Counted from the stretch's first letter, positions 10,372 to 42,993 are shown. The stretch: 64,000 nt of DNA from Escherichia coli (GCF_013122565.1 NZ_CP053258.1); one strand, 5' to 3'. The notes: a model not told the origin generated them from the sequence alone. Translations and numbers: made by a program.

Positions 10372-10447
10372 TGGTGGGTCGTGCAGGATTCGAACCTGCG
10401 ACCAATTGATTAAAAGTCAACTGCTCTACCAACTGAGCTAACGACCC
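10372..10447 (-). tRNA. lysQ: tRNA-Lys (UUU)
   Basis: 76-nt exact copy of the tRNA-Lys sequence on the minus strand, CCA encoded, anticodon loop CUUUUAA. Confidence 0.9.
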
Positions 10448-10480
10448 CTTGCGGGATTATGCTGCTTTAATCATTCAGGA

Positions 10481-10556
10481 TGGTGGGTCGTGCAGGATTC
10501 GAACCTGCGACCAATTGATTAAAAGTCAACTGCTCTACCAACTGAGCTAACGACCC
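10481..10556 (-). tRNA. lysZ: tRNA-Lys (UUU)
   Basis: Identical 76-nt tRNA-Lys copy. Confidence 0.9.
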
Positions 10557-10604
10557 ATACGGGTGTTACCTGAAAGATTTCTACTCGGAACCAATCTTTA
10601 AAAT

Positions 10605-10702
10605 TGGTGGGTCGTGCAGGATGACTCGCTTCGCTCGCCCTACGGGCCGTTGCTGGCGCAACGTTATCCTTCACGCTTAACATCTGAGTTTGATGTTAAA
10701 AC
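10605..10702 (-). repeat. spacer repeat carrying a truncated tRNA-Lys 3' end (copy A)
   Basis: Starts with the 3'-terminal ~17 nt of tRNA-Lys (rc tggtgggtcgtgcagga) then diverges into a GC-rich ~80 bp unit; near-identical to the copy at 10909-11006. Confidence 0.6.
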
Positions 10703-10778
10703 TGGTGGGTCGTGCAGGATTCGAACCTGCGACCAATTGATTAAAAGTCAACTGCTCTACCAACTGAGCTAACGACCC
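10703..10778 (-). tRNA. lysY: tRNA-Lys (UUU)
   Basis: Identical 76-nt tRNA-Lys copy. Confidence 0.9.
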
Positions 10779-10781
10779 GAG

Positions 10782-10857
10782 TGGTGGGTGATGACGGGAT
10801 CGAACCGCCGACCCCCTCCTTGTAAGGGAGGTGCTCTCCCAGCTGAGCTAATCACCC
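10782..10857 (-). tRNA. valZ: tRNA-Val (UAC)
   Basis: 76-nt tRNA on the minus strand (rc gggtgattagctcagctgggagagcacctcccttacaagg...), anticodon UAC, CCA encoded. Confidence 0.9.
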
Positions 10858-10908
10858 GATACTGCGCTGGATACTACAAACTACTTCCACCGAACCCACC
10901 GTAATTAG

Positions 10909-11006
10909 TGGTGGGTCGTGCAGGATGACTCGCTTCGCTCGCCCTACGGGCCGTTGCTGACGCAACGTTATCCTACACGCTTAACATCTGTCTTCGATGT
11001 TAAAAT
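10909..11006 (-). repeat. spacer repeat carrying a truncated tRNA-Lys 3' end (copy B)
   Basis: Same structure as copy A with 3-4 substitutions. Confidence 0.6.
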
Positions 11007-11082
11007 TGGTGGGTCGTGCAGGATTCGAACCTGCGACCAATTGATTAAAAGTCAACTGCTCTACCAACTGAGCTAACGACCC
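11007..11082 (-). tRNA. lysW: tRNA-Lys (UUU)
   Basis: Identical 76-nt tRNA-Lys copy. Confidence 0.9.
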
Positions 11083-11084
11083 GG

Positions 11085-11160
11085 TGGTGGGTGATGACGG
11101 GATCGAACCGCCGACCCCCTCCTTGTAAGGGAGGTGCTCTCCCAGCTGAGCTAATCACCC
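11085..11160 (-). tRNA. valT: tRNA-Val (UAC)
   Basis: Identical 76-nt tRNA-Val copy. Confidence 0.9.
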
Positions 11161-11195
11161 GATACTACGCTGGATACTACAACTAACTATGTTAG

Positions 11196-11268
11196 TGGTG
11201 GGTCGTGCAGGATGACTCGACTTCGTCTCGCCCTTCGGGCCGTTGCTGACGCAACGTTATCCTTCACG
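11196..11268 (-). repeat. spacer repeat carrying a truncated tRNA-Lys 3' end (copy C, more diverged)
   Basis: Same tRNA-Lys 3' fragment followed by a related but more diverged GC-rich segment. Confidence 0.5.
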
Positions 11269-11295
11269 TTTTACTACCGCTTCCACCTTAGCGCT

Positions 11296-11371
11296 TGGTG
11301 GGTCGTGCAGGATTCGAACCTGCGACCAATTGATTAAAAGTCAACTGCTCTACCAACTGAGCTAACGACCC
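11296..11371 (-). tRNA. lysT: tRNA-Lys (UUU)
   Basis: Identical 76-nt tRNA-Lys copy; first gene of the operon on the minus strand. Confidence 0.9.
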
Positions 11372-11535: not shown

Positions 11536-12327
11536 TTACATCGCGTTCAGACGTTTTTGCGCCTGTTTAGCGCCATCAGTACCAGGGTATTTACTGATAA
11601 CCTGCTGGTATACGGCTTTCGCTTTTGCGGTGTCACCTTTGTCCTGCATGATGACGCCGACTTTAAACATCGCATCTGCAGCCTTTGGTGACTTCGGATA
11701 GTTTTTCACTACCGAAGCAAAATAGTACGCCGCATCATCTTTTTTACCCTTGTTGTAGTTTAACTGACCCAGCCAATAATTGGCGTTTGGCAGGTAAGTT
11801 GAATCAGGGTAATTTTTGATGAAATTCTGAAATGCCACCATTGCGTCATCCTGGCGGGATTTATCCTGCACCAGCGCAATAGCTGCATTGTAATCCGTGT
11901 TTGCATCGCCGCTTTTCACCGGCGCGCCAGCATTCGCAGTACCAGCATCAGCTGTCGGCGTCGTTGATGCCGCCGCACCGCTTTGATCACCGCTGGTTGA
12001 TTGCGCCGCTGCACCACCGCTGCTGAGGCTGTCGATCTGCAACAGGATCTGCTTTTGCCGCTCCACGACCTGATTCAGTTGATACTGATTTTCCTGAATC
12101 TGACCACGCAGGGAATCAATATCGGATTGATTATCAGAGAGTTGTTGCTGGAGTTGGGTTAAAAGCTGGCTGTGAGCATTAGAAATACGCTCAAGTTGAG
12201 TGACGCGGTCTTCGACCGAGCCTGAGCCGACACTACTGATTGGTGCCTGAGCAAAAGCGGCCCAGGGGGCCGCTATACCAACCAGTAACGACAGACTCAA
12301 TAGTTGATGTCTGAAGTTACTGCTCAT
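11536..12327 (-). CDS. cpoB: cell division coordinator CpoB (YbgF), periplasmic TPR protein
   Basis: 263 aa ORF with a signal peptide, Gln-rich coiled-coil N-domain and C-terminal TPR-like repeats; last gene of the tol-pal cluster. Confidence 0.9.
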   Translation of the reverse strand: MSSNFRHQLLSLSLLVGIAAPWAAFAQAPISSVGSGSVEDRVTQLERISNAHSQLLTQLQQQLSDNQSDIDSLRGQIQENQYQLNQVVERQKQILLQIDSLSSGGAAAQSTSGDQSGAAASTTPTADAGTANAGAPVKSGDANTDYNAAIALVQDKSRQDDAMVAFQNFIKNYPDSTYLPNANYWLGQLNYNKGKKDDAAYYFASVVKNYPKSPKAADAMFKVGVIMQDKGDTAKAKAVYQQVISKYPGTDGAKQAQKRLNAM

Positions 12328-12336
12328 GCAATTCTC

Positions 12337-12882
<546 letters not shown>

Positions 12883-21287: not shown

Positions 21288-22232
21288 ATGAGTCCTGATA
21301 ATATCGGTTCGGCTGTCAATCGCTTCTCAGGTTGGCCATCTAATGATCCTCTAAAAACAGATAAAGAATCAACGACATCACCCGTGACAGTGCAGGTAAT
21401 AAAGATGATTGCCGCCATCCTTGACCCACATCGGATAGTCGTTGGAATCGATACACTTTATACAACGCAGCGCGAAACATTTACCTCAGAGAGTCAACAG
21501 CTCATTGAATCAGCATTGCAAACACTTCATGTGATGAATTTAAATAACCTGGAAACAAATCGCGATGAAGAAGGTCACTATCTGGCTTTTGAATATAACG
21601 TTGACACCTCTGACAGAATAACCGTTTCTGCTTACAATGAAAAAAATCCTGGCTGCTATGGCCAATGTCTTTTAATACAGGATGACGAAACAGACTTATT
21701 CAACCTGATAAAAATTAAAATTTTTGAAGCCAGGCATAATTATGTCGCTCAATTGATGAGCGATCCAGAATTTATGTTCAAATTCAGTTATAGCGCTCAA
21801 CAAAATAGATTAGAACCTCATCTTCTGGTTCCCGCTTATTTCCCTCTAAAAACAAACGAACCGGTTACGCAAGAGGATGTACTGTTACTTTATCGTTTCT
21901 TTAAAATGAATGATGATTTTAACAAATTAACATCAGATGAATACATGAGTATCCTGACACCTCTGATGAAGTGTGAGCGTAGCGTCCACGACAACAACAG
22001 GTATGTGACGGGCAAAGATACCCTTCTTCTGGACTATCCTCCTTCTGGTAACCAGATACATTTCCATGTTTTCCCTGACGAATCAGCAACACTAGTCCTT
22101 TATTTTTCAAACAATGACCTTGAATATTTCGTCTTTGAAAGAGATATTCCGAGCCAGTATCGCTTTTTCAAAATGTTTACCAATCTGGCACTGGTTATAG
22201 ATCAGTTAACCGAAGCCCATAAAATACTTTAA
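21288..22232 (+). CDS. hypothetical protein, 314 aa, AT-rich codon usage, no recognisable motif
   Basis: ATG at 21288 with a GAGG RBS 8 nt upstream; Ser/Thr/Pro-rich N-terminus; no family recognised by eye. Confidence 0.55.
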   Translation: MSPDNIGSAVNRFSGWPSNDPLKTDKESTTSPVTVQVIKMIAAILDPHRIVVGIDTLYTTQRETFTSESQQLIESALQTLHVMNLNNLETNRDEEGHYLAFEYNVDTSDRITVSAYNEKNPGCYGQCLLIQDDETDLFNLIKIKIFEARHNYVAQLMSDPEFMFKFSYSAQQNRLEPHLLVPAYFPLKTNEPVTQEDVLLLYRFFKMNDDFNKLTSDEYMSILTPLMKCERSVHDNNRYVTGKDTLLLDYPPSGNQIHFHVFPDESATLVLYFSNNDLEYFVFERDIPSQYRFFKMFTNLALVIDQLTEAHKIL

Positions 22233-22312: not shown

Positions 22313-22735
22313 ATGATATCATCTCAGATCTCTTTCAGTACTCTTCCTGTCAATGCAACATACGCTTCAGAGACAACAGTTGACACACAAAAATTCTCTG
22401 ACATCCTCTACTCAGCGGGGTGTTCCCTAAAGGATATGGCTTATCTGAGCAGATGTCTGGCATCAATACACCCGACTATCGCCAAAAACATTTATGAAAC
22501 AGAAAATCTCAGCGATCAAAAATTACTGCATATTGATTGCCGTAGTACAAATGACATCAAGATAAATATCTTTTTTGGTCAGCAACGAGAAGGATTAATT
22601 GAAATTAGTTCTGACACAGTTATTTTTTCGATACTGTCTTCATTGATTGACTCCGCCATTTCTAAATTTCAACATCAAAACCCGGTTAACGGTTCAGTTA
22701 ATCCTGAACTATTGTATGAGGATTATACTGATTAA
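22313..22735 (+). CDS. hypothetical small acidic protein, 140 aa
   Basis: Co-directional ORF 80 bp after the 314-aa ORF, same AT-rich composition; weak RBS, so the start is uncertain. Confidence 0.45.
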   Translation: MISSQISFSTLPVNATYASETTVDTQKFSDILYSAGCSLKDMAYLSRCLASIHPTIAKNIYETENLSDQKLLHIDCRSTNDIKINIFFGQQREGLIEISSDTVIFSILSSLIDSAISKFQHQNPVNGSVNPELLYEDYTD

Positions 22736-23281
22736 ATCCACCCTGTCGCGAAAAATGGCCTGCGTTATTGCCAGACGTAATAAAACCTTTGATTAACGTT
22801 ACTCATACTGATAGCACCTTCATGTACCTCTCTTTTTTACGCAAATCAAAAGAGCTAACGAAGGTCATAATTCGCATGAATCATTAACCATTTGTTATTT
22901 TCAACATTACTTTTACATTAAGCAGAAATGAATGGTAGTGAAATTCGACTTAAATTTTATGAAATGCATTTACTTATGGCTAAACCCATATCACTAAAAT
23001 GCAAATTAGAAGTAGATCACAAATATCTCAATACACCAAATCAAGTTAATTTTAAAAATTTAACATTCATGACATTAGTTGACATAACACACTGAATTAA
23101 CATGGAAATTTAAAAACACACTTTAAACAATCATTTCCCGAAAGACATTTTGAAAATAGATCAATTGCAACATTACGGTCAGATAAAGACACTCCTGTGA
23201 TATTAAACCTGTGCCGTTATGAACGGCCATAAATACGACGTGTGTAACTTATTTTACTCTCTGTCTTACAAAGGATTACCC

Positions 23282-23731
23282 ATGAAGAAAGCAACACTTG
23301 TGATTGGCGTTATTGGCGCGGACTGCCATGCAGTAGGCAATAAAGTTCTGGACCGCGTTTTTAGCAACCACGACTTCAGAGTCATTAATCTGGGCGTAAT
23401 GGTCAGCCAGGACGAATATATTGATGCTGCCATTGAAACTGGCGCTGACGCGATTGTCGTCTCCTCTATCTATGGGCATGGCGATATCGACTGTCTGGGC
23501 ATGCGCGAACGCTGCATCGAGCGTGGACTGGGGGACATCCTGCTCTATGTGGGCGGTAACCTGGTGGTAGGAAAACATGACTTCGCTGACGTGGAAAACA
23601 AGTTCAAAGAGATGGGATTTGATCGCGTCTTTGCCCCAAGTCATGACTTAGAAGAGGTTTGTCAGCTGATGGCCCACGATATCAACCAACGTCATGACGT
23701 TGATACTCGCATTCTTGAAGAGGCAATCTGA
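23282..23731 (+). CDS. mamA: glutamate mutase sigma (S) subunit, B12-binding (methylaspartate mutase small subunit)
   Basis: ORF 23219..23731 trimmed to the ATG at 23282 after AAGGA; [24 protein letters not shown] carries the DxHxxG cobalamin-binding motif and aligns with clostridial GlmS/MutS. Confidence 0.85.
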
Positions 23732-25119
23732 TGCAAATCGTCTCTGTCGATATTGGATCGACGTGGACCAAAGCAGCCCTCTTCACCCGGGAGGGGGACG
23801 CGTTAACGTTGGTTAACCACGTACTGACCCCAACCACCACCCATCATCTGGCGAAGGGGTTTTTCTCCAGCCTGAACCAGGTGTTAAACGTAGATAATGC
23901 CCTCCCCCTGTTAAACAGCGGTGAGGTTGCATTGAAGTATTCCTCCTCTGCCAAAGGTGGGCTGGCGGTTGCCGCAATGGGATTGGTGCCTTCTATCACC
24001 CTGGAAACCGCGAAAGTAACCGCTCACTCTGCGGGTGCTAAAATTGCGCAATATTACGCCTACAAGCTGAACCGCCGTGATATCCAGGCACTGGAAGAAA
24101 CGCAGCCCGATATTCTCTTGTTCACCGGCGGCACCGACGGCGGAGAAGAAAGCTACGGACTGAATAACGCCCGTGTGCTGGCAGAATCCAAACTCGACTG
24201 CGCCATTATTTATGCCGGAAACCGGGATATTCAGGACGAGGTGCAGGAGATCCTCGGACATAAAGACCTGACCATCGTCGACAACGTTCTGCCCGATCTT
24301 GACCATCCGAACCCTTTAGCCGCACGCCAGGCTATCTGCGACATATTCCTTAAACGCATCGTTAAAGGGAAAGGGCTGGATGTCATTGTTGATAAAACAG
24401 GCGAAGAACCAATGCCGACACCATGGACGGTCTTTGAACTGGTTAAGGCAATCAGTAACGTCGATCACAGCTGGAAAGAGTTCATGCTGATCGACATGGG
24501 CGGCGCAACCACCGATGTCTATTCCGCCTGTGCCAACACGCTCTCGCCCGACACCGTTTTACACGGCGTACCGGAACCCTTCGTAAAACGGACGGTGGAA
24601 GGCGATCTGGGAATGCGCGTCTCGGCAATGGTGGTTGGTGAAAGTGCGAAAGAGTTAGTCAATGTAAATTTTGCTCAGCAACCCGCACAGCTGGACGCTT
24701 TTTATCATTACCTCCGTCATTTAGTCGCTCATCCCGACTACTTACCCGCGAATGCAGAAGAAAAATATTTCGATACCGTCCTGGCCGGACTGTGTGTGGG
24801 TTATGCCACCGAAAGACATGCGGGCACCAAAAAAGAGGTCTGCACCTGCGTCGGCAATGTCGATTTACAAATGGGACGTGACCTGACAACCGTGCGTAAA
24901 GTCGTCGGATCCGGCGGATGGCTCTCGCGTGCCAGTCAGTTCGATATGCATCACTGGTTGAAATACCGCGAGTTAAACGACGACGGTAAACGCATTCTCT
25001 TACCGACCGAATTTGAATATTACCGCGATTCCCGGGGGCTATTACCACTGCTGGCAAACGTCGCCAGAGTCGATCCGCTGGCCGCCGCGCGCACCAGTAT
25101 TCAATGCTTAACCCTATAA
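23731..25119 (+). CDS. glmL: glutamate mutase L protein (GlmL/MutL, putative chaperone/reactivase)
   Basis: 462 aa, starts [18 protein letters not shown] (actin-like ATPase N-terminus); start overlaps the S-subunit stop (tgATG); sits between S and E as in clostridial operons. Confidence 0.8.
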   Translation: MQIVSVDIGSTWTKAALFTREGDALTLVNHVLTPTTTHHLAKGFFSSLNQVLNVDNALPLLNSGEVALKYSSSAKGGLAVAAMGLVPSITLETAKVTAHSAGAKIAQYYAYKLNRRDIQALEETQPDILLFTGGTDGGEESYGLNNARVLAESKLDCAIIYAGNRDIQDEVQEILGHKDLTIVDNVLPDLDHPNPLAARQAICDIFLKRIVKGKGLDVIVDKTGEEPMPTPWTVFELVKAISNVDHSWKEFMLIDMGGATTDVYSACANTLSPDTVLHGVPEPFVKRTVEGDLGMRVSAMVVGESAKELVNVNFAQQPAQLDAFYHYLRHLVAHPDYLPANAEEKYFDTVLAGLCVGYATERHAGTKKEVCTCVGNVDLQMGRDLTTVRKVVGSGGWLSRASQFDMHHWLKYRELNDDGKRILLPTEFEYYRDSRGLLPLLANVARVDPLAAARTSIQCLTL

Positions 25120-25137: not shown

Positions 25138-26583
25138 ATGGAACTTCGAAATAAGAAATTAACCCATGACGAATTCATGACCGAGCGGCAACAGGTACTG
25201 AAAACCTGGGAAACCGGCAAGGATGTTGAAAATTTTGAAGATGGCGTTAAATACCAACAAACCATTCCTGAGCATAAACGCTTCTCTCTCGCCCTGCTGA
25301 AAGCAGACAAGGAAGGTAAAACCCTTAGCCAACCGCGCGCAGGTGTGGCGCTGATGGACGAACACATCGAACTACTGAAAACACTACAAGAAGAGTGCGA
25401 TCTGCTGCCAAGCACCATCGATGCATATACCCGTCTGAATCGGTACGAAGAAGCGGCTGTAGGGATTAAAAAATCCATCGAAGCCGGAACCTCTAAACTG
25501 AACGGTTTACCGGTAGTTAACCACGGAGTCGCAGCTTGCCGTCGCCTCACCGAAACCCTGCAAAAACCGCTACAGATCCGCCACGGCACGCCAGATGCGC
25601 GTCTGCTGGCTGAAATCTCGATGGCCAGTGGCTTTACCAGTTACGAAGGCGGCGGCATTTCCTACAACATTCCGTATGCCAAACGCGTAACGCTGGAAAA
25701 ATCGATCCGCGACTGGCAGTACTGCGACCGTTTAATGGGGATGTATGAAGAACACGGGATCCGCATCAACCGCGAACCATTTGGCCCACTAACGGGTACG
25801 CTGATCCCGCCGTTTATCTCGCACTCTATCGCCATAATCGAAGGCTTGCTGGCGCTGGAACAGGGTGTGAAATCTATCACCGTTGGTTATGGCCAGGTCG
25901 GCAGCCTGACGCAGGATGTTGCGGCGATCCAGTCTCTGCGTGAACTTGCACATGAATACTTTCAGAGCTATGGCTATACCGACTATGAATTAAGTACCGT
26001 GTTTCACCAGTGGATGGGCGGCTTTCCGGAAGACGAATCGAAAGCGTTCGCTATTATCTCCTGGGGCGCAGCCGTCGCGGGGATGTCTGGTGCCACCAAA
26101 GTCATCACCAAAAGTCCGCACGAAGCCTGGGGTATCCCAACTGCCGCTGCCAACATTCAGGGGCTGAAAGCCTCCCGCCAGATGCTCAACATGGTCAATG
26201 AGCAGAAATTCCCGCCATGCCCTGCGGTTGAACTGGAAATTGAACTGATTAAGAGCGAGGTTCGCGCGGTACTGAATAAAGTGTTCGAACTGGGTAATGG
26301 TGATATTGCGCGCGGTACGGTGCTGGCATTTGAAGCGGGCGTACTGGATGTGCCGTTTGCGCCAGCCGCCTGCAACGCGGGCAAAATTCTTCCGGTCCGT
26401 GACAACACCGGCGCGATACGCGTACTGGAAGCCGGAGCCGTTCCATTGCCAAAAGATATTCTCGACCTCCACCACGATTACGTTGCGGAACGCGCACGCT
26501 GTGAAGGACGCCAACCGACATTCCAGATGGTTGTAGATGACATCAATGCTGTATCCCACAGTAAATTAATAGGAAGACCATAA
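25138..26583 (+). CDS. mamB: glutamate mutase epsilon (E) catalytic subunit (methylaspartate mutase large subunit)
   Basis: 481 aa, starts MELRNKKLTHDEFMTERQQVLKTW; conserved blocks PRAGVALMDEHIELL, HGTPDARLLAEI, FHQWMGGFPEDESKAF match clostridial GlmE. Confidence 0.88.
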   Translation: MELRNKKLTHDEFMTERQQVLKTWETGKDVENFEDGVKYQQTIPEHKRFSLALLKADKEGKTLSQPRAGVALMDEHIELLKTLQEECDLLPSTIDAYTRLNRYEEAAVGIKKSIEAGTSKLNGLPVVNHGVAACRRLTETLQKPLQIRHGTPDARLLAEISMASGFTSYEGGGISYNIPYAKRVTLEKSIRDWQYCDRLMGMYEEHGIRINREPFGPLTGTLIPPFISHSIAIIEGLLALEQGVKSITVGYGQVGSLTQDVAAIQSLRELAHEYFQSYGYTDYELSTVFHQWMGGFPEDESKAFAIISWGAAVAGMSGATKVITKSPHEAWGIPTAAANIQGLKASRQMLNMVNEQKFPPCPAVELEIELIKSEVRAVLNKVFELGNGDIARGTVLAFEAGVLDVPFAPAACNAGKILPVRDNTGAIRVLEAGAVPLPKDILDLHHDYVAERARCEGRQPTFQMVVDDINAVSHSKLIGRP

Positions 26584-27824
26584 TGAAAATAAAACAGGCC
26601 CTGTTCACCGCTGGCTATTCCTCATTCTATTTCGATGACCAGCAGGCGATAAAAAACGGAGCGGGTCACGACGGCTTTTTTTATACCGGGGAGCCAGTAA
26701 CACAGGGGTTTAACGCCGTACGTCAGGCCGGGGAGTGCGTATCGGTACAGTTGATTCTGGAAAACGGCGCGGTCGCTGTAGGTGACTGTGCTGCCGTACA
26801 GTATTCCGGGGCAGGTGGTCGCGATCCACTGTTCCTCGCAGAGCACTTTATTCCGTTCCTCAACGACCATATTAAGCCATTACTGGTAGGCCGCGATGTG
26901 GATACTTTCCTGCCGAATGCCCGTTTCTTCGACAAATTGCGTATTGACGGCAACTTGCTGCATACCGCCGTGCGCTACGGATTATCACAGGCGCTGCTTG
27001 ATGCTACCGCGCTGGCAACCGGCCGTCTGAAAACTGAAGTGGTCTGTGATGAATGGCAGTTGCCACGCGTGGCGGAATCCATTCCATTATTTGGTCAGAG
27101 CGGCGACGATCGATATATCGCCGTCGATAAGATGATCCTTAAGGGCATCGACGTGCTGCCCCATGCGCTGATTAATAACGTCGAAGAGAAGCTGGGCTTT
27201 AAAGGTGAAAAACTGAGCGAATATGTCCGCTGGTTGTCGGATCGCATTCTAAGCAAGCGCACCAGCGCGCGCTACCACCCTACCCTGCACATCGATGTAT
27301 ACGGCACTATCGGTCTGATCTTCGATATGGATCCGCTCCGCTGTGCGCAATACATCGCCAGCCTGGAAAAAGAAGCGCAAGGCCTGCCGCTCTACATCGA
27401 AGGGCCGGTCGATGCCGGTAACAAGCCCGATCAAATTCGCCTGCTGACCGCGATTACCAAAGAGCTGACGCGCCTCGGTTCCGGCGTGAAAATTGTGGCC
27501 GATGAATGGTGTAACACCTACCAGGATATTGTTGATTTCACTGATGCTGCCAGTTGTCACATGGTGCAAATCAAAACCCCGGATCTGGGCAGTATTCACA
27601 ACATCGTCGATGCGGTTCTTTACTGCAACAGCCACAGCATGGAAGCGTACCAGGGCGGCACCTGCAATGAAACTGATGTCAGTGCCCGCACCTGTGTCCA
27701 CGTCGCCCTTGCCGCTCGCCCTATGCGTATGCTGGTAAAACCAGGGATGGGCTTTGACGAAGGCCTCGATATCGTCTTCAACGAAATGAATCGTACTATC
27801 GCGCTGTTGCAGGCTAAGGATTAA
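26583..27824 (+). CDS. 3-methylaspartate ammonia-lyase (beta-methylaspartase)
   Basis: 413 aa, start overlaps the E-subunit stop (taATG); blocks CAAVQYSGAGGRDPLF, FGQSGDDRY, HMVQIKTPDLG, CNET match clostridial methylaspartase (enolase superfamily). Confidence 0.88.
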   Translation: MKIKQALFTAGYSSFYFDDQQAIKNGAGHDGFFYTGEPVTQGFNAVRQAGECVSVQLILENGAVAVGDCAAVQYSGAGGRDPLFLAEHFIPFLNDHIKPLLVGRDVDTFLPNARFFDKLRIDGNLLHTAVRYGLSQALLDATALATGRLKTEVVCDEWQLPRVAESIPLFGQSGDDRYIAVDKMILKGIDVLPHALINNVEEKLGFKGEKLSEYVRWLSDRILSKRTSARYHPTLHIDVYGTIGLIFDMDPLRCAQYIASLEKEAQGLPLYIEGPVDAGNKPDQIRLLTAITKELTRLGSGVKIVADEWCNTYQDIVDFTDAASCHMVQIKTPDLGSIHNIVDAVLYCNSHSMEAYQGGTCNETDVSARTCVHVALAARPMRMLVKPGMGFDEGLDIVFNEMNRTIALLQAKD

Positions 27825-27827
27825 CAA

Positions 27828-29198
27828 ATGGCTCGTTCTTTTAAAGTCTTATCGCCAACGGCAATCCTCGGGTATGGATTCCCGGAAGAGAGCTTCCGCA
27901 AAGCGATGGCAGAATCGCCCGATCTGATCGCCGTTGATGCCGGCTCTTCCGATCCAGGCCCCCACTACCTCGGGGCAGGCAAACCGTTTACCGATCGCGC
28001 AGGGGTCAAGCGCGATCTGCGCTATATGATCACCGCAGGCGTGCAAAATAATATACCGGTGGTGATCGGAACGGCTGGCGGTTCTGGTGCCGCACCACAC
28101 CTGGAGTGGTGCCGAGAAATAATTCATGAGATTGCCCGGGAAGAGCACCTCTCGTTCTCGATGGCGTTGATCCCGGCAGACGTTGACAAAGCCATCGTCC
28201 ACCAGGCGCTGGATAACGGCAAAATCACGGCGCTGGATTTTGTCCCGCCGTTAACCCACGACGCGATTGACGAAAGTACGTATATCGTTGCGCAAATGGG
28301 CATCGAACCCTTCCAGCGGGCTCTGAAAGAAGGCGCGCAAGTGGTGCTGGGCGGGCGCGCTTACGACCCGGCCTGCTTTGCTGCGCTCCCGATCATGCAA
28401 GGCTTTGATGAAGGTCTGGCGCTGCATTGTGGGAAAATCCTTGAGTGCGCAGCAATCGCCGCAACGCCCGGCTCAGGCTCTGACTGTGCGATGGGCATCA
28501 TTGATGACAACGGCTTTACGCTGAAGACATTTAATCCGAAGCGTAAATTTACCGAAACGTCAGCAGCTGCACACACACTGTATGAAAAATCCGATCCCTA
28601 CTTCCTGCCAGGACCTGGCGGCGTGTTGAACCTGAAAGGCTGCACATTTAAAGCAGTCAATGACGGCGAAGTCTACGTCAGCGGTTCTAAGCATGAAGAA
28701 ACGCCGTATGCCCTGAAACTGGAAGGTGCACGACGGGTGGGCTTCCGCTGTCTGACCATCGCCGGAACGCGCGACCCGATCATGATCGCCGGGATCGATA
28801 AAATCATCGATGAAGTCAAAATCAGCGTTTCGCGTAACCTGTCGCTTGACGATGACAGCATTCGCATCAATTTCCACCTGTACGGCAAAAACGGGGTGAT
28901 GGGCGACCATGAACCGATGCAAACTACCGGGCATGAGCTGGGGATTGTCCTTGATGTAGTTGCACCGACCCAGGAAATTGCCAACAGCGTTTGCTCGCTG
29001 GTGCGCTCTACCATGCTGCACTACGGCTATGAAAACCGCATCGCTACCGCAGGCAACCTGGCGTTCCCGTTCTCCCCTTCTGATATCCAGGGCGGGCCGG
29101 TATACGAATTTTCCATATATCACCTGATTGAAGCCAACGACGCTCTGCGTTTTGATTTCCATATTGAACAGGTGACGCCAGAAGGAGTTCAGGTATGA
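27828..29198 (+). CDS. uncharacterised protein, 456 aa (tentatively AtuA-like/DUF1446-type; family not verified)
   Basis: ATG at 27828 with AAGGA 7 nt upstream, 3 bp after the methylaspartase stop; Gly-rich, no cofactor motif recognised by eye. Confidence 0.6.
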   Translation: MARSFKVLSPTAILGYGFPEESFRKAMAESPDLIAVDAGSSDPGPHYLGAGKPFTDRAGVKRDLRYMITAGVQNNIPVVIGTAGGSGAAPHLEWCREIIHEIAREEHLSFSMALIPADVDKAIVHQALDNGKITALDFVPPLTHDAIDESTYIVAQMGIEPFQRALKEGAQVVLGGRAYDPACFAALPIMQGFDEGLALHCGKILECAAIAATPGSGSDCAMGIIDDNGFTLKTFNPKRKFTETSAAAHTLYEKSDPYFLPGPGGVLNLKGCTFKAVNDGEVYVSGSKHEETPYALKLEGARRVGFRCLTIAGTRDPIMIAGIDKIIDEVKISVSRNLSLDDDSIRINFHLYGKNGVMGDHEPMQTTGHELGIVLDVVAPTQEIANSVCSLVRSTMLHYGYENRIATAGNLAFPFSPSDIQGGPVYEFSIYHLIEANDALRFDFHIEQVTPEGVQV

Positions 29199-29512
29199 AA
29201 CAGTCAATTGTCTCACTGGCGCAAGTCATTCGTTCGAAAAATGCCGGTCCTTACGAACTGGTTTTAGATATTTTATTTAAAACGAAAGAAAACTATGAGC
29301 GAGTTAAATCATCAGGGCAATTAACCCCAGAACTGATTGCGCGCTTATATCATGTTGAACCTGACTTTATTCATCGTATTGTCTGGTTTGATCCTTCTAA
29401 CGCAGTAAAAATCGTCATGCCACGAGATATTATCTCCGGGAATGTAGGTGACAATGATGTCTATGGTGCACAGCAACATGCACCTTTATTAAATATGAGT
29501 TTCGATTTGTAA
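29195..29512 (+). CDS. uncharacterised small protein, 105 aa, translationally coupled to the preceding ORF
   Basis: ATG at 29195 overlaps the upstream stop (ATGA); no recognisable motif. Confidence 0.55.
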   Translation: MKQSIVSLAQVIRSKNAGPYELVLDILFKTKENYERVKSSGQLTPELIARLYHVEPDFIHRIVWFDPSNAVKIVMPRDIISGNVGDNDVYGAQQHAPLLNMSFDL

Positions 29513-29672
29513 AAATCCGAACACTTTTAGCCAACTGACATCCCATCACTTATTGCAGTTCAACACTTCAGCTATTTGTAAGGTTGTAATAGCAGGTAGA
29601 TGCCTGAGTCTCTATTCAGGCATCTACTTCTCCTGATTCTGATTTATCGCCGTGCACCTGATGGAGGAAAAA

Positions 29673-30953
29673 ATGAAGAAAATAAGTTTAACCACGATGA
29701 TTCTTTTGGCGCTGGTACTTGGAATGATTATCGGCGTAGTGCTCAATAACACTGCTTCACCGGAAACCGCAAAACTCTATGCGCAAGAAATATCGATATT
29801 CACGACGATTTTCTTACGACTGATAAAAATGATTATCGCTCCGTTAGTGGTCTCTACCCTGGTGGTAGGTATAGCTAAAATGGGCGATGCCAAAGCCCTT
29901 GGTCGTATTTTTTCTAAAACACTTTTTTTATTTATTTGCGCCTCATTGCTGTCAATTGCCTTAGGCTTGATAACAGTAAATTTCTTCATGCCAGGCACAG
30001 GAATTAATTTTGTTGCACACGGAGCCGAAACCACCGGAGTGGTCGCGTCAGAACCCTTTACGCTAAAAGTATTTATTTCGCATGCTTTCCCCACCAGCAT
30101 TGTCGATGCCATGGCGCACAATGAAATTTTGCAAATCGTGGTGTTCTCAATTTTCCTCGGCTGTAGCCTGACGGCGATTGGCGAGAAAGGCAGCGCCATC
30201 GTTCACGCCTTAGATTCGCTGGCACATGCCATGTTAAAGCTCACTGGCTACGTCATGCTCTTCGCTCCCCTGACCGTATTCGCCGCTATTTCAGCATTGA
30301 TTGCTGAACGAGGACTGGCAGTTATGGTGAGCGCCGGGATCTTTATGGGTGAATTTTATTTCACCATGTTGTTACTTTGGGTACTGCTTATCGGTCTGGC
30401 CATCGTTTATGTCGGCCCCTGCATCAGACGCCTGACCCGCGCCCTTTCGGAACCCGCCCTGCTGGCATTTACCACATCCAGTTCTGAAGCGGCTTTTCCG
30501 GGAACGCTTGAAAAACTGGAGCAATTTGGCGTTTCCCCCAAAATTGCCAGCTTTGTCTTACCCATTGGCTACTCATTTAATCTCGTTGGATCAATGGCCT
30601 ACTGCTCCTTCGCCACAGTTTTCATCGCCCAGGCCTGCAATATCCATTTATCCATCGGTGAGCAAATCACCATGCTGTTGATCCTGATGTTGACCTCGAA
30701 AGGAATGGCTGGCGTACCACGCGCCTCAATGGTGGTTATCGCCGCCACGCTCAACCAGTTCAATATTCCGGAAGCAGGGCTGATCTTGCTGATGGGCGTT
30801 GATCCGTTCCTTGATATGGGGCGTTCCGCGACAAACGTCATGAGCAACGCAATGGGCGCTGCGATGGTGAGTCGGTGGGAAGGCGAACATTTCGGCGAGG
30901 GCTGTCGGGGTAAAGCATTAAAACCCAATGAATCGAACGTTGCTCTGCCCTGA
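29673..30953 (+). CDS. dicarboxylate/amino acid:cation symporter (GltP/DctA family), candidate glutamate or C5-dicarboxylate transporter
   Basis: ORF 29652..30953 trimmed to the ATG at 29673 after GGAGGA; polytopic, with the family serine-rich motif (TTSSSEAAFPGTLEKLE) as in GltP. Confidence 0.8.
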   Translation: MKKISLTTMILLALVLGMIIGVVLNNTASPETAKLYAQEISIFTTIFLRLIKMIIAPLVVSTLVVGIAKMGDAKALGRIFSKTLFLFICASLLSIALGLITVNFFMPGTGINFVAHGAETTGVVASEPFTLKVFISHAFPTSIVDAMAHNEILQIVVFSIFLGCSLTAIGEKGSAIVHALDSLAHAMLKLTGYVMLFAPLTVFAAISALIAERGLAVMVSAGIFMGEFYFTMLLLWVLLIGLAIVYVGPCIRRLTRALSEPALLAFTTSSSEAAFPGTLEKLEQFGVSPKIASFVLPIGYSFNLVGSMAYCSFATVFIAQACNIHLSIGEQITMLLILMLTSKGMAGVPRASMVVIAATLNQFNIPEAGLILLMGVDPFLDMGRSATNVMSNAMGAAMVSRWEGEHFGEGCRGKALKPNESNVALP

Positions 30954-31060: not shown

Positions 31061-32713
31061 ATGTCCAAACCATTTATCTGGCAAGAACCGTTTCTACAAA
31101 ATAAAGACGGTACAGAATATACATTAATTAGCGATCAACATATTACAGTAACGGAATTAGACGGCGAAGAAGTGATAAAAATCGCTCCTGAAGCATTAAC
31201 GCTGCTTGCCCGGCAGGCATTTTATGAAGCCTCTTTTTTCTTACGTTCCGCTCATTTGCAACAGGTCGCCAGCATTCTTAACGATCCGCAGGCCAGTAGT
31301 AATGATAAATACGTTGCGTTGCAGTTATTACGTAATGCTGAAGTCTCAGCAAAAGGGGTATTACCCAACTGTCAGGATACCGGCACCGCAACTATTGTTG
31401 CCAGGAAAGGGCAACAGATATGGACCGGAGGTAACGACGCTGAAGCCTTAAGCAAAGGCATTTACACCACTTTCCAGGAAAATAATCTGCGCTTTTCACA
31501 AAATGCGCCGCTGGATATGTATACCGAAGTCAATACGCAAACCAATCTCCCGGCGCAGATTGATATCAGCGCCGTCGCTGGTGATGAGTACCATTTTCTC
31601 TGTGTTAATAAAGGGGGCGGCTCCGCCAATAAAGCCACGCTTTATCAGGAAACCAAATCCTTATTGCAACCAGAAAAACTGACCGCATTTTTAATCGAAA
31701 AAATGAAATCGCTGGGCACCGCTGCCTGCCCGCCTTACCACATCGCCTTTGTCGTCGGAGGGCTTTCAGCCGATCAAACCTTAAAAGTTGCCAAGCTGGC
31801 TTCTACGAAATATTACGACAATTTGCCCACCAGCGGAAACGAGCAGGGACAAGCATTCCGTGATATTGAGCTGGAAAAAGTGATGCTCGAGGCCAGTCAG
31901 CAATTTGGTATTGGTGCGCAATTTGGGGGTAAATATTTCGCTCATGATATTCGCGTCATTCGTCTGCCGCGTCACGGTGGCTCCTGCCCGATAGCTATGG
32001 CGCTCTCCTGTTCAGCCGATCGCAATATCAAAGCAAAAATTAACAAGCACGGTATCTGGCTGGAAAAACTCGAACACAATCCGGGGCAATATATTCCAGC
32101 CTCACTATGGGAAGAAAATCACGCGCAACATGTACAACTGGATCTAAACCGTCCGTTGCGTGACGTGATGCAGGATCTCGCCAGATTACCGGTAGGTACC
32201 CGCGTGTCGTTAAGTGGTCCCATCGTAGTGGCGCGCGATATCGCCCACGCCAAAATAAAAGCGCGGCTGGATAGCGGCGAATCGATGCCGGAGTACCTGA
32301 AGCATCATATTGTCTATTACGCTGGCCCGGCGAAAACACCGGAGAACATGGCCTGCGGTTCACTAGGTCCAACCACGGGCGGTCGAATGGACGGTTATGT
32401 CGATACCTTCCAGGCTGCTGGCGGCAGTCTGGTGATGTTATCGAAAGGTAACCGCAGCCAGCAGGTCACCGATGCCTGTCACAAACATGGTGGCTTCAAT
32501 CTGGGAAGTATTGGCGGTGCAGCTGCGTTACTGGCGCAAGAATATGTCAAAAGTCTGCGTTGCCTGGAATACCCGGAGCTGGGTATGGAAGCGGTGTGGA
32601 TGATGGAAGTGGAAAATCTGCCCGCATTCATCCTGGTAGATGATAAAGGCAATAATTTCTTTAGTCAGTTTGAGCAGCAACACCGCTGCGCCAGTTGCCC
32701 TGCGGGACATTAA
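31061..32713 (+). CDS. class I (Fe-S) fumarate hydratase family protein, FumA/FumB paralogue; candidate mesaconase
   Basis: 550 aa, full-length similarity to FumA as remembered (blocks [55 protein letters not shown]); context suggests mesaconate hydration. Confidence 0.85.
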
Positions 32714-32722
32714 GGAAAATGA

Positions 32723-33325
32723 ATGGAAGCGCGAATTTCAACTGAACGGCATGTGCAGCGCCAGCAGAAATTGAAGGAACAGGTCGATACGCGCGTCGCG
32801 GCGGCGATAGAGAAAAAAGGGATCTTGATTGTTTTCACCGGCAATGGCAAAGGGAAATCCACTGCCGCGTTTGGTACGGTGACGCGCGCGGTGGGTCATG
32901 GCAAAACGGTGGGGGTTGCGCAGTACATCAAGGGGCAATGGGACAACGGCGAATACAACCTTCTCCAGCCGCTCGGGGTTGAGTTTCATATTATGGGAAC
33001 CGGTTTTACCTGGGAGACACAGAACCGGCAAGCGGATATCGACGCGGCGAAAGAGGTCTGGTCGGAAAGCAAACGGATGCTGGCTGACAAGCGTTACGAC
33101 TTAGTGGTGCTTGATGAGCTGACCTATATGCTGGCTTACCATTATCTGGATACCGAAGAAGTGATCGCTTCTCTGCAAAACCGCCCGGCACAACAAAGTG
33201 TCATTGTCACCGGACGCGGTTGCCACAGTCAGATATTAAAAATGGCGGATACGGTCAGCGAAATCCGCCCCGTCAAACATGCTTTTGATAACGGCATTCA
33301 GGCCCAGCCGGGTATCGACTGGTAA
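32723..33325 (+). CDS. cob(I)alamin adenosyltransferase, BtuR/CobA-family paralogue
   Basis: 200 aa with P-loop GNGKGKSTAAFG and full-length similarity to BtuR as remembered; AAGGA RBS; last gene of the operon. Confidence 0.85.
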   Translation: MEARISTERHVQRQQKLKEQVDTRVAAAIEKKGILIVFTGNGKGKSTAAFGTVTRAVGHGKTVGVAQYIKGQWDNGEYNLLQPLGVEFHIMGTGFTWETQNRQADIDAAKEVWSESKRMLADKRYDLVVLDELTYMLAYHYLDTEEVIASLQNRPAQQSVIVTGRGCHSQILKMADTVSEIRPVKHAFDNGIQAQPGIDW

Positions 33326-33328
33326 TAA

Positions 33329-33356
33329 CTGCGCCTGGCATCCCGCCAGGCGCAGG
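33329..33356. terminator. bidirectional terminator between the B12-operon end and the convergent LysR gene
   Basis: Perfect 11-bp inverted repeat ctgcgcctggc / gccaggcgcag around a 5-nt loop, followed by gtttt. Confidence 0.7.
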
Positions 33357-33358
33357 TT

Positions 33359-34264
33359 TTACATCTCCTGCGGTACGACCGATTTCGCCAGCAACCATTC
33401 ACGAAATTGCTGCAAGTGCGGCGAGTCAGACTTCTCTTCCTGCCACGTCATAATAAAACGATTACCGGTACGAATAGGCACATCACAGGGAATCACCATA
33501 TCGCCACTATCCAAATCATGTTGAATAGCGAACCGTGGTAACAGCGCCACGCCGAGATTAGAGCGCACGGCGGCAATCAACATTGAAAGCAAATCGAAAC
33601 GTGGCCCGTTGTTGACCAGCGGACTGCTAACGCCAGATAAAGCAAACCACTCTTCCCAGCCAGTAATACGGGTGCTTTGATGCAGAAGTGGTAACTCAGT
33701 AAGCAGTTCTGCCACTGACAGTTTTTGATCGGACATTGCAAGCAAACTGCCGCTGCATACCGGCAAAATCTCCTCTTCAAAGAGATATTCTACTTCCGCC
33801 CAGGGCGCGCAAAAATTTTCGCGCATAATGACAGCATCGTACTCCCGATTAAGAAAATCGCCGTTATTAGCTAAAGAATGAATATTAACAATAATATCGG
33901 GATGTAACTTTGTGAATTCATGTAAATTTGGGATTAACCAGTGGGTACTAAAAGTAGGATTAACGGCAAGTTCAATAACCTGAACCGTAGGCTGCCAGGT
34001 CATAATGGTATTGGTATCGCGTTCCAGCTTATTTAATGTTTCTTTTACTATCCCCAGGTAATACTTCCCTGCATCATTAAGAAAAATACGTTTTTTAGAG
34101 TGTGAAAATAACGGAGTACGTAAAAATTCCTCCAGCGCACTTACTTGTCTGAATACTGCACTTTGGGTTAACGCTAACTCCTCTGCCGCTCTGGTATAAC
34201 TTTCATGACGTGCGACGACCTCAAAAGTCACCAGCAGTTCCGTTTTAGGTATTTTTCCTCGCAT
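33359..34264 (-). CDS. LysR-family transcriptional regulator
   Basis: ORF 33359..34294 trimmed to the Met after a ggaagg RBS (MRGKIPKTELLVTFEVVARHESYTRAAEELALTQSAVFRQVSALEE is a typical LysR HTH); about 301 aa. Confidence 0.85.
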   Translation of the reverse strand: MRGKIPKTELLVTFEVVARHESYTRAAEELALTQSAVFRQVSALEEFLRTPLFSHSKKRIFLNDAGKYYLGIVKETLNKLERDTNTIMTWQPTVQVIELAVNPTFSTHWLIPNLHEFTKLHPDIIVNIHSLANNGDFLNREYDAVIMRENFCAPWAEVEYLFEEEILPVCSGSLLAMSDQKLSVAELLTELPLLHQSTRITGWEEWFALSGVSSPLVNNGPRFDLLSMLIAAVRSNLGVALLPRFAIQHDLDSGDMVIPCDVPIRTGNRFIMTWQEEKSDSPHLQQFREWLLAKSVVPQEM

Positions 34265-34854
34265 AATGCCTTCCGTGAAAAAATAACAATTCAAAAAATT
34301 ATTTTATAAAAAACAGTAGCGCTAATGAATATCATAATTCAAATAAACAAACCAGTCAGCTATATGTCTAACCAGGAAAATAAAGTGACAATAATCCTAA
34401 AACAGGAATTTCACCTCAGTTATCCGCATGCAATGCTTTAAAGCCATTATTGCAAGAATATTATTCATATACATGAATATACTCTAAATAAGTCGAGTTG
34501 GAGGAAGGGAACAAATAATGAATTTCCAGAAGCTTACATAAGTAAGTGACCTGGGTGAGCGAACATCGATGCAGCACATGCAACTTGAATTATGACAAGT
34601 ATACAATGATAAATTTAGATACCCTATGTTATATATTATCTATGTCCGGTTAAATTGAATGAGTCATGGCCTTCAAAGACATCGCAAAAGATAATTTCTC
34701 TTTAACAATAAGCCAGATTTACCACTTGTAAAAATTGCTATCGCCACATACACTACGCGCGTTTTCTTTCCCTTTTGCTGGCTGCTGACCGGAAAGACAA
34801 AATTACCCTCGCAATACAGGGGGTTGTTTAACGTCTATATTTCAGGACAGCGTT

Positions 34855-36252
34855 ATGCATCATCTTTCAAGGCTTGATAAAGCCTTTCTGCGCAAAGGGA
34901 TCCAACTTTCCCGCGCCAACAATATTGTTTCATTATCTCGTCCATCAGGTGTCAGTGCCCGCGTACTGCTGCCAGACGAACTGCCGCTGGAAGAAAAAGC
35001 AGTAACACAACTGCTTGATTTTGCAGAAGTGAAGCTACCAGACCACCCAGGTTATGTACGCCAGACGTGTGCGACGCCAGATTTTCATCCCGGCAATGGC
35101 GTCCCCGTTGGCGCGGTGGTAGCCTCAACGCCGGATTTAGTCATTCCCGCCGCCATCGGCACCGATATTTCTTGTGGCATGCGGCTGCTGACGACCGGAA
35201 TAACACTTGAGCAAGCCGAAGCGCATAAAGACGTCATCACTCAGCGGTTAACGCAAGTGTTACTGCAAAATGAGCGCGATGTTCCGTTATCTGCACGAGC
35301 GTTCACCGCGCTTTTTGATGGCGGGCCGGCAGATTGCATGTCGGCCTTGCCATCAGCAGGTCTCTGGACACGCACGAATATCCCCCGAATGGTACAAGAG
35401 ATTGACCGCTGCATTGGGCTGAACGAGCATAAAAGTCATTCGCGTTATGCCCCACCCGCCCTGCTGGCAACGGACCGCGCATTACTCCGCGACCCTTGTC
35501 TGGGTACGCCGGGTTCAGGTAATCATTTTATTGAACTTCAGGTAGTTGATAGCGTGATCGATCGCCATGTAGCCTGGCAACAAGGGCTGAAAACAGGCGA
35601 TATCGTGGTGATGATCCATAGTGGATCGCGAGATGTCGGCTTTTACGTCGGACGACGCTGGACGGACCGTGCCCGCGCAGACTGGCCCGCTGGGCATAAA
35701 CATCCACAAAGCGGGTTATATGGTCTGGCTGGTGGACTGGCGGAGGAATATCTACAAGCGATGGGAATGGCGGCGCGTTACGCATGGTTAAATCGCGTGA
35801 CCATTACGGAAATGGTGCGCGTATGTTTTGCCGATTTATTCCATCAGGATGAATCACATCTGGTGGTGGATGTGCCGCATAACATCATCCTTCGCGAGCA
35901 TGAGATGAATATTCATCGCAAAGGCGCAACACCGGCACGTGCGGGCGATCTGGCGTTAATCCCCGGTTCAATGGGCGATTATTCGTGGCTTGCGGTAGGT
36001 TGCGGCAACCCGGAGTGGTTGTGGTCATGCAGTCACGGAGCAGGACGCAGCCAGCGTCGGCAGGCCATGCGCGCACACGCGACTGAAGAGTCAACGCTGC
36101 CGTGGCAATGCGTAACACTGCGTGAAGAACGGCGTATTGAGGAAGCGCCAGCTGCTTATAAAGATATTGGTCCGGTTATCGAAGCCCAACAAGAAGCTGG
36201 ATTAATTCAGCCAGCGGTCAGATTTCGACCGTGGTTAACGTTTAAGGCATAA
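34855..36252 (+). CDS. RtcB-family RNA ligase paralogue (465 aa, N-terminally extended)
   Basis: Motifs typical of RtcB: PDFHPGNG, GTDISCGM (cf. GVDIGCGM), and HGAGR near the C-terminus; divergent from the LysR gene across 590 bp. Confidence 0.75.
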   Translation: MHHLSRLDKAFLRKGIQLSRANNIVSLSRPSGVSARVLLPDELPLEEKAVTQLLDFAEVKLPDHPGYVRQTCATPDFHPGNGVPVGAVVASTPDLVIPAAIGTDISCGMRLLTTGITLEQAEAHKDVITQRLTQVLLQNERDVPLSARAFTALFDGGPADCMSALPSAGLWTRTNIPRMVQEIDRCIGLNEHKSHSRYAPPALLATDRALLRDPCLGTPGSGNHFIELQVVDSVIDRHVAWQQGLKTGDIVVMIHSGSRDVGFYVGRRWTDRARADWPAGHKHPQSGLYGLAGGLAEEYLQAMGMAARYAWLNRVTITEMVRVCFADLFHQDESHLVVDVPHNIILREHEMNIHRKGATPARAGDLALIPGSMGDYSWLAVGCGNPEWLWSCSHGAGRSQRRQAMRAHATEESTLPWQCVTLREERRIEEAPAAYKDIGPVIEAQQEAGLIQPAVRFRPWLTFKA

Positions 36253-36274
36253 AAAAGGCCATCATACGATGGCC
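36251..36274 (-). terminator. rho-independent terminator of the sdh-suc transcript / SdhX
   Basis: Hairpin ggccatc-gtat-gatggcc followed on the minus strand by a U-run (plus-strand aaaaaa at 36251-36256); begins immediately after the RtcB-like stop codon. Confidence 0.75.
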
Positions 36275-36349
36275 AACCATGTCGAAACCGACAGCCCTTC
36301 GCCATTCCTGTAGAGGGAAGCGGCGAGGGCTATTTCTTATTACAGATAT
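36251..36349 (-). ncRNA. sdhX: putative SdhX (RybD) sRNA from the sucD 3' UTR
   Basis: About 100 nt between the sucD stop (36350) and the terminator; contains ...caggaauggcgaagggcugucgguuucgacaugguuggccaucguaugauggccuuuu, which matches my recollection of the SdhX 3' region. Confidence 0.5.
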
Positions 36350-37219
36350 TTATTTCAGAACAGTTTTCAGTGCTTCACCGATATCCGCCAGGCTGCGAAC
36401 GGTTTTCACGCCTGCGGCTTCCAGAGCCGCGAATTTCTCATCCGCAGTCCCTTTCCCACCGGCAATGATGGCACCTGCGTGGCCCATACGTTTGCCTTTC
36501 GGCGCAGTCACACCAGCGATGTAACCTACAACTGGCTTGGTAACGTGCTCTTTGATGTACGCTGCTGCTTCTTCTTCAGCGCTACCGCCGATCTCACCGA
36601 TCATCACGATCGCTTCGGTCTGCGGATCTTTTTCGAACATTTCGAGGATGTCGATAAAGTTAGAGCCAGGGATCGGGTCACCGCCGATACCAACACAGGT
36701 CGACTGACCGAAACCGTAATCCGTGGTCTGTTTAACCGCTTCATAGGTCAGTGTACCGGAACGGGAAACGATACCCACTTTACCCGGTTTGTGAATGTGA
36801 CCAGGCTGGATACCGATTTTGCATTCACCTGGGGTGATAACGCCCGGGCAGTTCGGGCCGATCATACGAACGCCGGCTTCATCCAGTTTCACTTTCACAG
36901 TCAGCATATCCAGCGTCGGGATGCCTTCAGTGATGGTGATAATCAGTTTGATGCCTGCGTCGATGGCTTCCAGAATGGAGTCTTTGCAGAACGGTGCTGG
37001 TACGTAGATAACAGAAGCGGTAGCGCCAGTGGCAGCAACGGCTTCACGCACGGTGTTGAACACCGGCAGGCCGAGGTGGGTGGTGCCGCCTTTACCTGGG
37101 GTTACGCCGCCAACCATTTTAGTGCCGTATGCAATAGCCTGTTCTGAGTGGAAAGTCCCCTGGCTACCGGTAAAACCCTGGCAGATAACCTTGGTGTTTT
37201 TATCAATTAAAATGGACAT
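36350..37219 (-). CDS. sucD: succinyl-CoA synthetase alpha subunit
   Basis: 289 aa, [45 protein letters not shown]. Confidence 0.95.
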
Positions 37220-38467: not shown

Positions 38468-38640
38468 CCCGTAGGCCTGATAAGACGCGTCAGCGTCGCA
38501 TCAGGCATCGCTTGTCGGATGCGGCGCGAGCGCCTTATCCGACCTACATCGGTGCTTCCCGTAGGCCTGATAAGACGCGTTAAGCGTCGCATCAGGCTTC
38601 AATGGCCGGAGAAGGCGATAATGCCTTATCCGGTCTACAG
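38468..38640. repeat. REP/BIME cluster in the sucB-sucC spacer
   Basis: Two tandem ~85 bp units each beginning cccgtaggcctgataagacgcg...gcgtcgcatcaggc, typical REP palindromes. Confidence 0.75.
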
Positions 38641-42872: not shown

Positions 42873-42993
42873 CGCCTGATGCGCTGCGCTTATCAGGCCT
42901 ACGGGTAATGACGTGTAGGCCGGATAAGGCGTTCACGCCGCATCCGGCACTGGTTGCCTGATAAGACGCTTGAGCGTCTTATCAGGCCTACGG
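42873..42993. repeat. REP/BIME cluster in the sdhB-sucA spacer
   Basis: gcctgatgcgctgcgcttatcaggcctacg ... gcctgataagacgcttgagcgtcttatcaggcctacg palindromic units. Confidence 0.75.

Follow-up and report, generated by a model that had tools for sequence, protein, structure and literature searches.

Two coupled genes of an Escherichia coli methylaspartate operon very probably encode a coenzyme A-independent citramalate lyase

The fate of citramalate

What becomes of citramalate in those strains of Escherichia coli that carry the genes of the methylaspartate pathway? The question is raised by a 64,000-nucleotide stretch of E. coli DNA (GCF_013122565.1, NZ_CP053258.1; here called the window, with positions counted from its first letter), in which an operon of nine + strand genes, glmS, glmL, glmE, mal, cmlA, cmlB, a symporter gene, fumD and cobO, places cmlA and cmlB between mal upstream and the gene for a DctA/GltP-type symporter downstream. 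The same cluster was described in E. coli O157:H7 by Kronen and Berg in 2015 (PMC4682846), who reported it in 90.6% of O157:H7 strains and found its FumD to be a mesaconase that produces (S)-citramalate. In that work citrate lyase, isocitrate lyase and methylisocitrate lyase gave no citramalate lyase activity, the fate of citramalate was stated to be unclear, and no explanation was given for a DUF1446 gene that follows mal and is frequently mis-annotated as methylaspartase.

CmlA and CmlB very probably form a heteromeric citramalate lyase that is independent of both coenzyme A (CoA) and acyl carrier protein and that completes the methylaspartate (mesaconate) route. A sequence-only reading of the window had called the biochemistry of the pair unknown, which is outdated, structures of a CmlA/CmlB citramalate lyase having been public since October 2025. 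It had also guessed at a citramalate-processing activity in place of the missing citramalate lyase, and this agrees both with the names given to the orthologous pair in the PDB and with the use made of that pair in a 2026 preprint. The function is already known rather than new, and it is genome annotation that lags behind.

The gene pair and its solved counterpart

The two genes, cmlA (27828..29198, + strand) and cmlB (29195..29512, + strand), are intact open reading frames (ORFs) of 456 and 105 amino acids, each with an ATG start. The ATG of cmlA is only 3 nt past the mal stop codon, and the cmlA stop and cmlB start meet in an ATGA overlap (29195..29198, +), a translational coupling arrangement that would give coupled synthesis of CmlA and CmlB. 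Each ATG is preceded, 7 nt upstream, by a Shine-Dalgarno sequence: AAGGA for cmlA within the 3′ end of mal (27816..27820, +) and AGGAG for cmlB within the 3′ end of cmlA (29183..29187, +). The ORFs, their overlap, their good ribosome-binding context and their position between methylaspartase and transporter had all been pointed out beforehand, and all are confirmed from the sequence. The view that the two genes would be expressed together as part of the operon is upheld as well. An exact match in the databases is WP_171459638.1 of E. coli.

That these are real genes and not chance ORFs follows from their Pfam matches and their thousands of homologues. The large protein matches AtuA (PF07287; E=2.6e-18, residues 63-393) and the small one DUF4387 (PF14330; E=2.9e-39, residues 6-101), just as the sequence-only reading, in tentatively naming an AtuA-like/DUF1446 protein with a small DUF4387 partner, had it. 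NCBIfam has no model matching either CmlA or CmlB, and no mention of DUF4387 was found in the literature searched.

The identity of the pair is argued for most directly by a structure. Chain A of PDB entries 9ERQ and 9EVF matches CmlA over residues 1-455 (E=5.5e-291) with 418 of the 455 residues identical (91.9%), and chain B matches CmlB (E=5.2e-57) with identity at 88 of 104 residues (84.6%). The depositors named the molecules ‘Citramalate lyase, subunit A (cmlA)’ and ‘subunit B (cmlB)’, and the ligand sets are adenylyl imidodiphosphate (AMPPNP) with citramalate and adenosine diphosphate (ADP) with pyruvate; 9EVF, released on 2025-10-08, bears the title ‘Citramalate lyase - ADP - pyruvate complex’. 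The window's CmlA, modelled with AlphaFold2 (mean predicted local distance difference test score, pLDDT, 95.6), superimposes on 9EVF_A with a template-modeling (TM) score of 0.98 and a root-mean-square deviation of 1.4 Å. Profile search and structure prediction, both of which had been put forward as checks, have in this way yielded the Pfam families and a large-subunit fold that matches the crystallized one.

The crystallized CmlAB is from a different host species and carries 37 (CmlA) and 16 (CmlB) substitutions with respect to the window's proteins. None of the 37 is in a column that is at least 80% conserved among 64 homologues, and the residues that are invariant in that 64-sequence alignment, D42, G44, G87, G158, G176, R177, D180, E206, E299, G353 and A412, are all kept in the window's CmlA. 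The origin of cmlAB is given in the preprint as Raoultella planticola, from the Berg laboratory.

Relatives of CmlA number 2382 among representatives of clusters at 50% identity, 444 of which score better than E=1e-30. They include single-chain proteins of roughly 610 amino acids, and the C-terminus of one of these, P0147 (608 amino acids), aligns with CmlB (34% identity, E=3e-25); this natural fusion is independent evidence that the CmlA and CmlB parts work together. On every mark of membership examined, namely orthology of both subunits, fold of the large subunit, family-invariant residues and genomic association, the pair is a CmlAB-type citramalate lyase.

Reaction and proposed pathway

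Two bodies of evidence are joined in the assignment. From the present analysis come orthology at 92% and 85% identity, the same predicted fold, a conserved gene pair and the pathway context; from the work of others come the net reaction of citramalate to pyruvate and acetate, its CoA independence, the PDB names and ligands and the in vivo conversion of mesaconate to acetyl-CoA. In the 2026 preprint the R. planticola cmlAB genes were used to cleave citramalate directly to pyruvate and acetate, a module described there as CoA-independent, and the cmlAB plasmid was required for an acetyl-CoA auxotroph to grow on mesaconate and for its acetyl-CoA to become labelled. The reaction was treated as reversible, with high acetate expected to disfavour cleavage, and the evolved strains had raised acetyl-CoA synthetase.

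Applied to the operon in the window, this suggests a route that would begin with glutamate uptake by the GltP-like symporter. GlmS/GlmE with GlmL would convert glutamate to 3-methylaspartate, with CobO supplying adenosylcobalamin, Mal would deaminate the 3-methylaspartate to mesaconate, FumD would hydrate mesaconate to (S)-citramalate, and CmlAB would then cleave (S)-citramalate between C2 and C3 to pyruvate and acetate.

Distribution and gene neighborhood

A scan of one genome per species gave at least 599 relatives, and the best 80 (56-91% identity) were used for locus counts, so these describe the closest relatives (at least 56% identity) and not distant AtuA paralogues. The 80 loci span Enterobacterales, Rhodocyclales, Riflebacteria, Aminicenantes, Acidobacteriota, Spirochaetes, Planctomycetota, Bacillota and others; 77 have enough flank to be informative for the downstream gene, and the methylaspartate genes were counted over 74. 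A DUF4387 gene, cmlB, is directly downstream of cmlA at all 77. Mal and/or GlmE is encoded within 10 kb of cmlAB at 65 of the 74, so the co-occurrence with methylaspartate-pathway genes whose absence was to have told against a role in the pathway is found in most species; mal is immediately upstream of cmlA on the same strand at 57 of the 74. A class I fumarase, of one or two subunits, is encoded in 39 of the 80 flanks. No homologue of CitD or CitF is encoded within 10 kb of any of the 80 cmlAB loci, which fits non-orthologous replacement of the classical lyase.

Loci that depart from the common arrangement are instructive. At a Holophagaceae locus cmlAB is followed by a two-subunit class I fumarase and glutamate mutase is lacking, so that the locus is in effect a module from mesaconate to pyruvate. 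In Dethiobacter sp. (L077:5373-9741, +) cmlAB is behind genes for a sensor kinase, a BtsR/LytR-type response regulator and a CstA-like pyruvate/proton symporter, and there are no methylaspartate genes nearby; this context fits pyruvate as substrate or product, and the lyase may there serve a different metabolism or run backwards. In three homologues at 40-50% identity the DUF4387 partner is retained, while their short contigs have no methylaspartate genes, which hints at a functional boundary of the Cml clade without defining it.

Of 5426 complete E. coli genomes, 1121 carry cmlAB and 1117 carry the 10.1-kb operon in full, so that in this species cmlAB is accessory, and present or absent together with the operon.

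Alternative identities

The match of the large protein to Pfam AtuA, together with a tentative listing of AtuA as an acetate lyase (PMC4847356), could be taken to mean that the pair is an AtuA-type acetate lyase of acyclic terpene utilization. However, no atu genes, such as those for geranyl-CoA carboxylase, are near the pair, the large protein has some 30-41% identity to long fused AtuA-type proteins as against 92% to the citramalate lyase structure, and the synteny with mal is tight across phyla, all of which makes such an identity very improbable. AtuA in the strict sense was rejected on the neighbors, glm, mal, fumD and cobO, and on the two split genes in place of a fused chain of about 600 amino acids. 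The sequence-only reading offered two other guesses, both of which have gone unsupported: an epimerase or isomerase with methylaspartate or mesaconate as its substrate, and a cofactor-handling factor, here taken as one that serves or reactivates the B12-dependent glutamate mutase. The epimerase or isomerase has just its position beside mal in its favor, and is scarcely credible when the ligands seen in the solved orthologue are citramalate and pyruvate rather than methylaspartate or mesaconate, when the pathway needs no such step as FumD accepts mesaconate directly (PMC4682846), and when a module of cmlAB and fumarase exists without mal or glm genes. A cofactor-handling factor would suit an operon shared with glmS, glmL, glmE and cobO, but GlmL and CobO already fill those roles, cmlAB has no glutamate mutase gene within 10 kb at 9 of the 74 species loci and the ligands in the structures are pathway metabolites, so that it too deserves hardly any credence.

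Two further candidates were discarded on domain content. The name methylaspartate ammonia-lyase, given to the large protein in databases, does not fit a protein in which the AtuA domain alone was found, with no MAAL_N or MAAL_C, and the true Mal is encoded at 26583..27824. A CitDEF-type lyase is not indicated either, as neither protein has a CitE, CitF or CitD match in Pfam or NCBIfam.

Several considerations nevertheless weigh against the assignment as citramalate lyase and need to be kept in mind. The evidence for activity comes from orthologues of the E. coli proteins: the name and ligands that the depositors gave for the structures, and a preprint whose authors worked with gifted genes. 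At 9 of the 74 species loci cmlAB has no methylaspartate genes within 10 kb. In E. coli O157:H7 no condition of cluster expression was found, and there was no growth on glutamate (PMC4682846). Lastly, the structures contain an adenine nucleotide, and CmlA has no recognizable kinase or ATP-grasp fold.

The bound nucleotide

The chemistry of the cleavage would be retro-aldol, with acetate released from a tertiary β-hydroxy acid, and the bound adenine nucleotide presumably participates in catalysis or controls it. In the thioester-dependent citrate and citramalate lyases it is activation of the carboxylate that enables formation of the acetate α-carbanion. In CmlAB, adenosine triphosphate (ATP) might transiently activate the C4 carboxylate as an acyl phosphate, so replacing the thioester of the classical lyases with no net use of ATP. 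We favor ATP as a bound cofactor or effector, possibly with such transient activation of the C4 carboxylate, because the preprint's expectation about acetate and the raised acetyl-CoA synthetase fit the release of free acetate without net ATP hydrolysis. A reversible, acetate-sensitive reaction argues against net hydrolysis, though without showing what ATP does.

ATP could instead be a true co-substrate, with citramalate and ATP giving pyruvate, acetyl phosphate and ADP, or with ATP being hydrolysed. The crystal complexes do look like a substrate state (AMPPNP with citramalate) and a product state (ADP with pyruvate), and carboxylate activation would solve the problem of generating the acetate α-carbanion; free acetate would in that case appear only after acetate kinase action or hydrolysis, and we consider the co-substrate scheme unlikely. 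Returning to the favored cofactor or effector role, a more specific form of it has ATP as a regenerated catalytic cofactor that transiently phosphorylates the C4 carboxylate, so that retro-aldol cleavage needs no thioester, and adds in most phyla a third, P-loop component with which enterobacteria would have dispensed; this is a tentative idea, somewhat doubtful as it stands. A conserved P-loop gene does follow cmlB outside enterobacteria: directly after cmlB, 49 of the 80 species encode a protein of about 320 amino acids with a P-loop and an AlaX/ThrRS-editing-like domain, and a gene of this kind is found neither in the E. coli operon nor anywhere else in this window. The AlphaFold2 model of this protein is poor in its N-terminal half.

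Annotation and significance

The public names for the exact CmlA and CmlB proteins are uninformative or wrong. CmlA homologues (P0002, P0060, P0074, P0398, P0405) go by names such as ‘3-methylaspartate ammonia-lyase’, the exact CmlB sequence has ‘Acyl-CoA synthetase’ as one of its UniRef names, and other current database names are ‘AtuA family’ and ‘DUF4387’; none of the sources of these names has ‘citramalate lyase’.

The assignment would answer the question left in 2015 of what becomes of citramalate in the enterobacterial cluster for glutamate fermentation, a cluster that about one-fifth of complete E. coli genomes carry. It would also be the first biochemical anchor for the AtuA/DUF1446 plus DUF4387 family (2382 clusters at 50% identity, fused forms included), and CmlAB stands for a thioester-independent C-C bond cleavage that is already used in synthetic pathways. 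What remains of value lies in the correction of annotation, in the role of the nucleotide and in the P-loop gene.

The operon and its surroundings

The first four genes of the operon are assigned from their ORFs and from orthologous annotation in E. coli strain Santai (L001). They are glmS (23282..23731, +), for subunit S of glutamate (methylaspartate) mutase; glmL (23731..25119, +), for the mutase accessory protein; glmE (25138..26583, +), for subunit E; and mal (26583..27824, +), for the methylaspartate ammonia-lyase that makes mesaconate. The start given for glmS is the one annotated in E. coli. The longest glmS ORF begins at 23219 (23219-23731, +, 170 amino acids), and the internal ATG at 23282 (149 amino acids), the E. 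coli-annotated start, has the better ribosome-binding context, AAAGGA.

Between cmlB and the symporter gene there is a 160-nt spacer whose RNA fold (-40.2 kcal/mol, z = -2.2) includes a hairpin with a 15-bp stem (29595..29628, +), containing a perfect 12-nt inverted repeat (29596-29607 and 29616-29627) and with no clean U-run after it. To judge by its sequence, this hairpin could be a partial terminator, or could act in the stability or processing of the messenger RNA, and so fix how much of the upstream operon products is made relative to the downstream ones. Next comes the gene for the dicarboxylate/amino acid:cation symporter (29673..30953, +), GltP/DctA-like by L001 annotation, with NCBIfam DctA/GltP matches under curated cut-offs, and presumed to serve glutamate uptake. 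The two last genes are fumD (31061..32713, +), for the class I fumarase/mesaconase that makes (S)-citramalate (NCBIfam NF011921, 1273.9 bits, cut-off 1060), and cobO (32723..33325, +), for cob(I)yrinic acid a,c-diamide adenosyltransferase (NCBIfam TIGR00708, 246.6 bits, cut-off 167.75). After cobO, at the end of the operon, is its only strong terminator-like hairpin (33329..33355, +), with 11 pairs of which 9 are G-C. Just past it, and convergent, is a gene for a LysR-type regulator (33359..34294, - strand; ORF and L001 annotation), a conserved neighbor in Enterobacterales loci and a candidate regulator. Scanned against Rfam, the operon gave neither a riboswitch nor a match to any other RNA family.

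Elsewhere in the window the Rfam scan gave seven transfer RNA genes interleaved with three RtT repeats (10375-11371, -), a CpoB/ybgF thermometer (12298-12436, -) and two naRNA4 (REP-type) elements (38474-38544, -, and 42918-42988, +), all outside the operon. Two ORFs between cydA and the glm operon (21288-22232, +, 314 amino acids; 22313-22735, +, 140 amino acids), without an NCBIfam match and annotated in E. coli as hypothetical proteins, appear to belong to the same accessory island as the operon. On the other side, between the LysR regulator gene and sucD, is an RtcB-family gene (34855-36252, +, 465 amino acids) that is absent from strain Santai. Among 5426 complete E. coli genomes, 144 match a 2,051-bp query covering this gene and its flanks (34300-36350) at 80% coverage or more, and the best of these matches is 96.4% identical, so the RtcB insertion is rarer and more divergent than the operon that it adjoins.

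Comparison with known systems

AtuA-type proteins share with CmlAB the Pfam family PF07287 and the DUF4387 module, and the chemistry proposed for them is alike, the release of acetate from a tertiary β-hydroxy acid. As the AtuA-type reaction also releases acetate in this way, it is plausible that retro-aldol loss of acetate is the common chemistry of the AtuA/DUF1446 family. They are, however, single chains of about 600 amino acids with DUF4387 fused (615 amino acids in Thauera, 608 in P0147), unlike the split CmlAB, and their genes accompany those for geranyl-CoA carboxylase and their substrate would be a CoA ester, neither of which holds for CmlAB. A more distant likeness is to isocitrate and methylisocitrate lyase of the phosphoenolpyruvate mutase superfamily, which carry out a thioester-independent retro-aldol cleavage of a hydroxy-polycarboxylate and release a free carboxylic acid; in that type of cleavage they resemble CmlAB by analogy only.

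The contrast is sharpest with the classical CitD/CitE/CitF lyases (Enzyme Commission numbers EC 4.1.3.22 and 4.1.3.6). The net reaction, citramalate to pyruvate and acetate, is the same, and the classical citramalate lyase holds in the clostridial methylaspartate pathway the very place proposed here for CmlAB (PMC4682846), yet the two have no relationship in sequence or fold. CmlAB lacks an acyl carrier subunit, a CoA-derived prosthetic group and the CitC/CitG/CitX maturation genes, and its structures have an adenine nucleotide bound instead.
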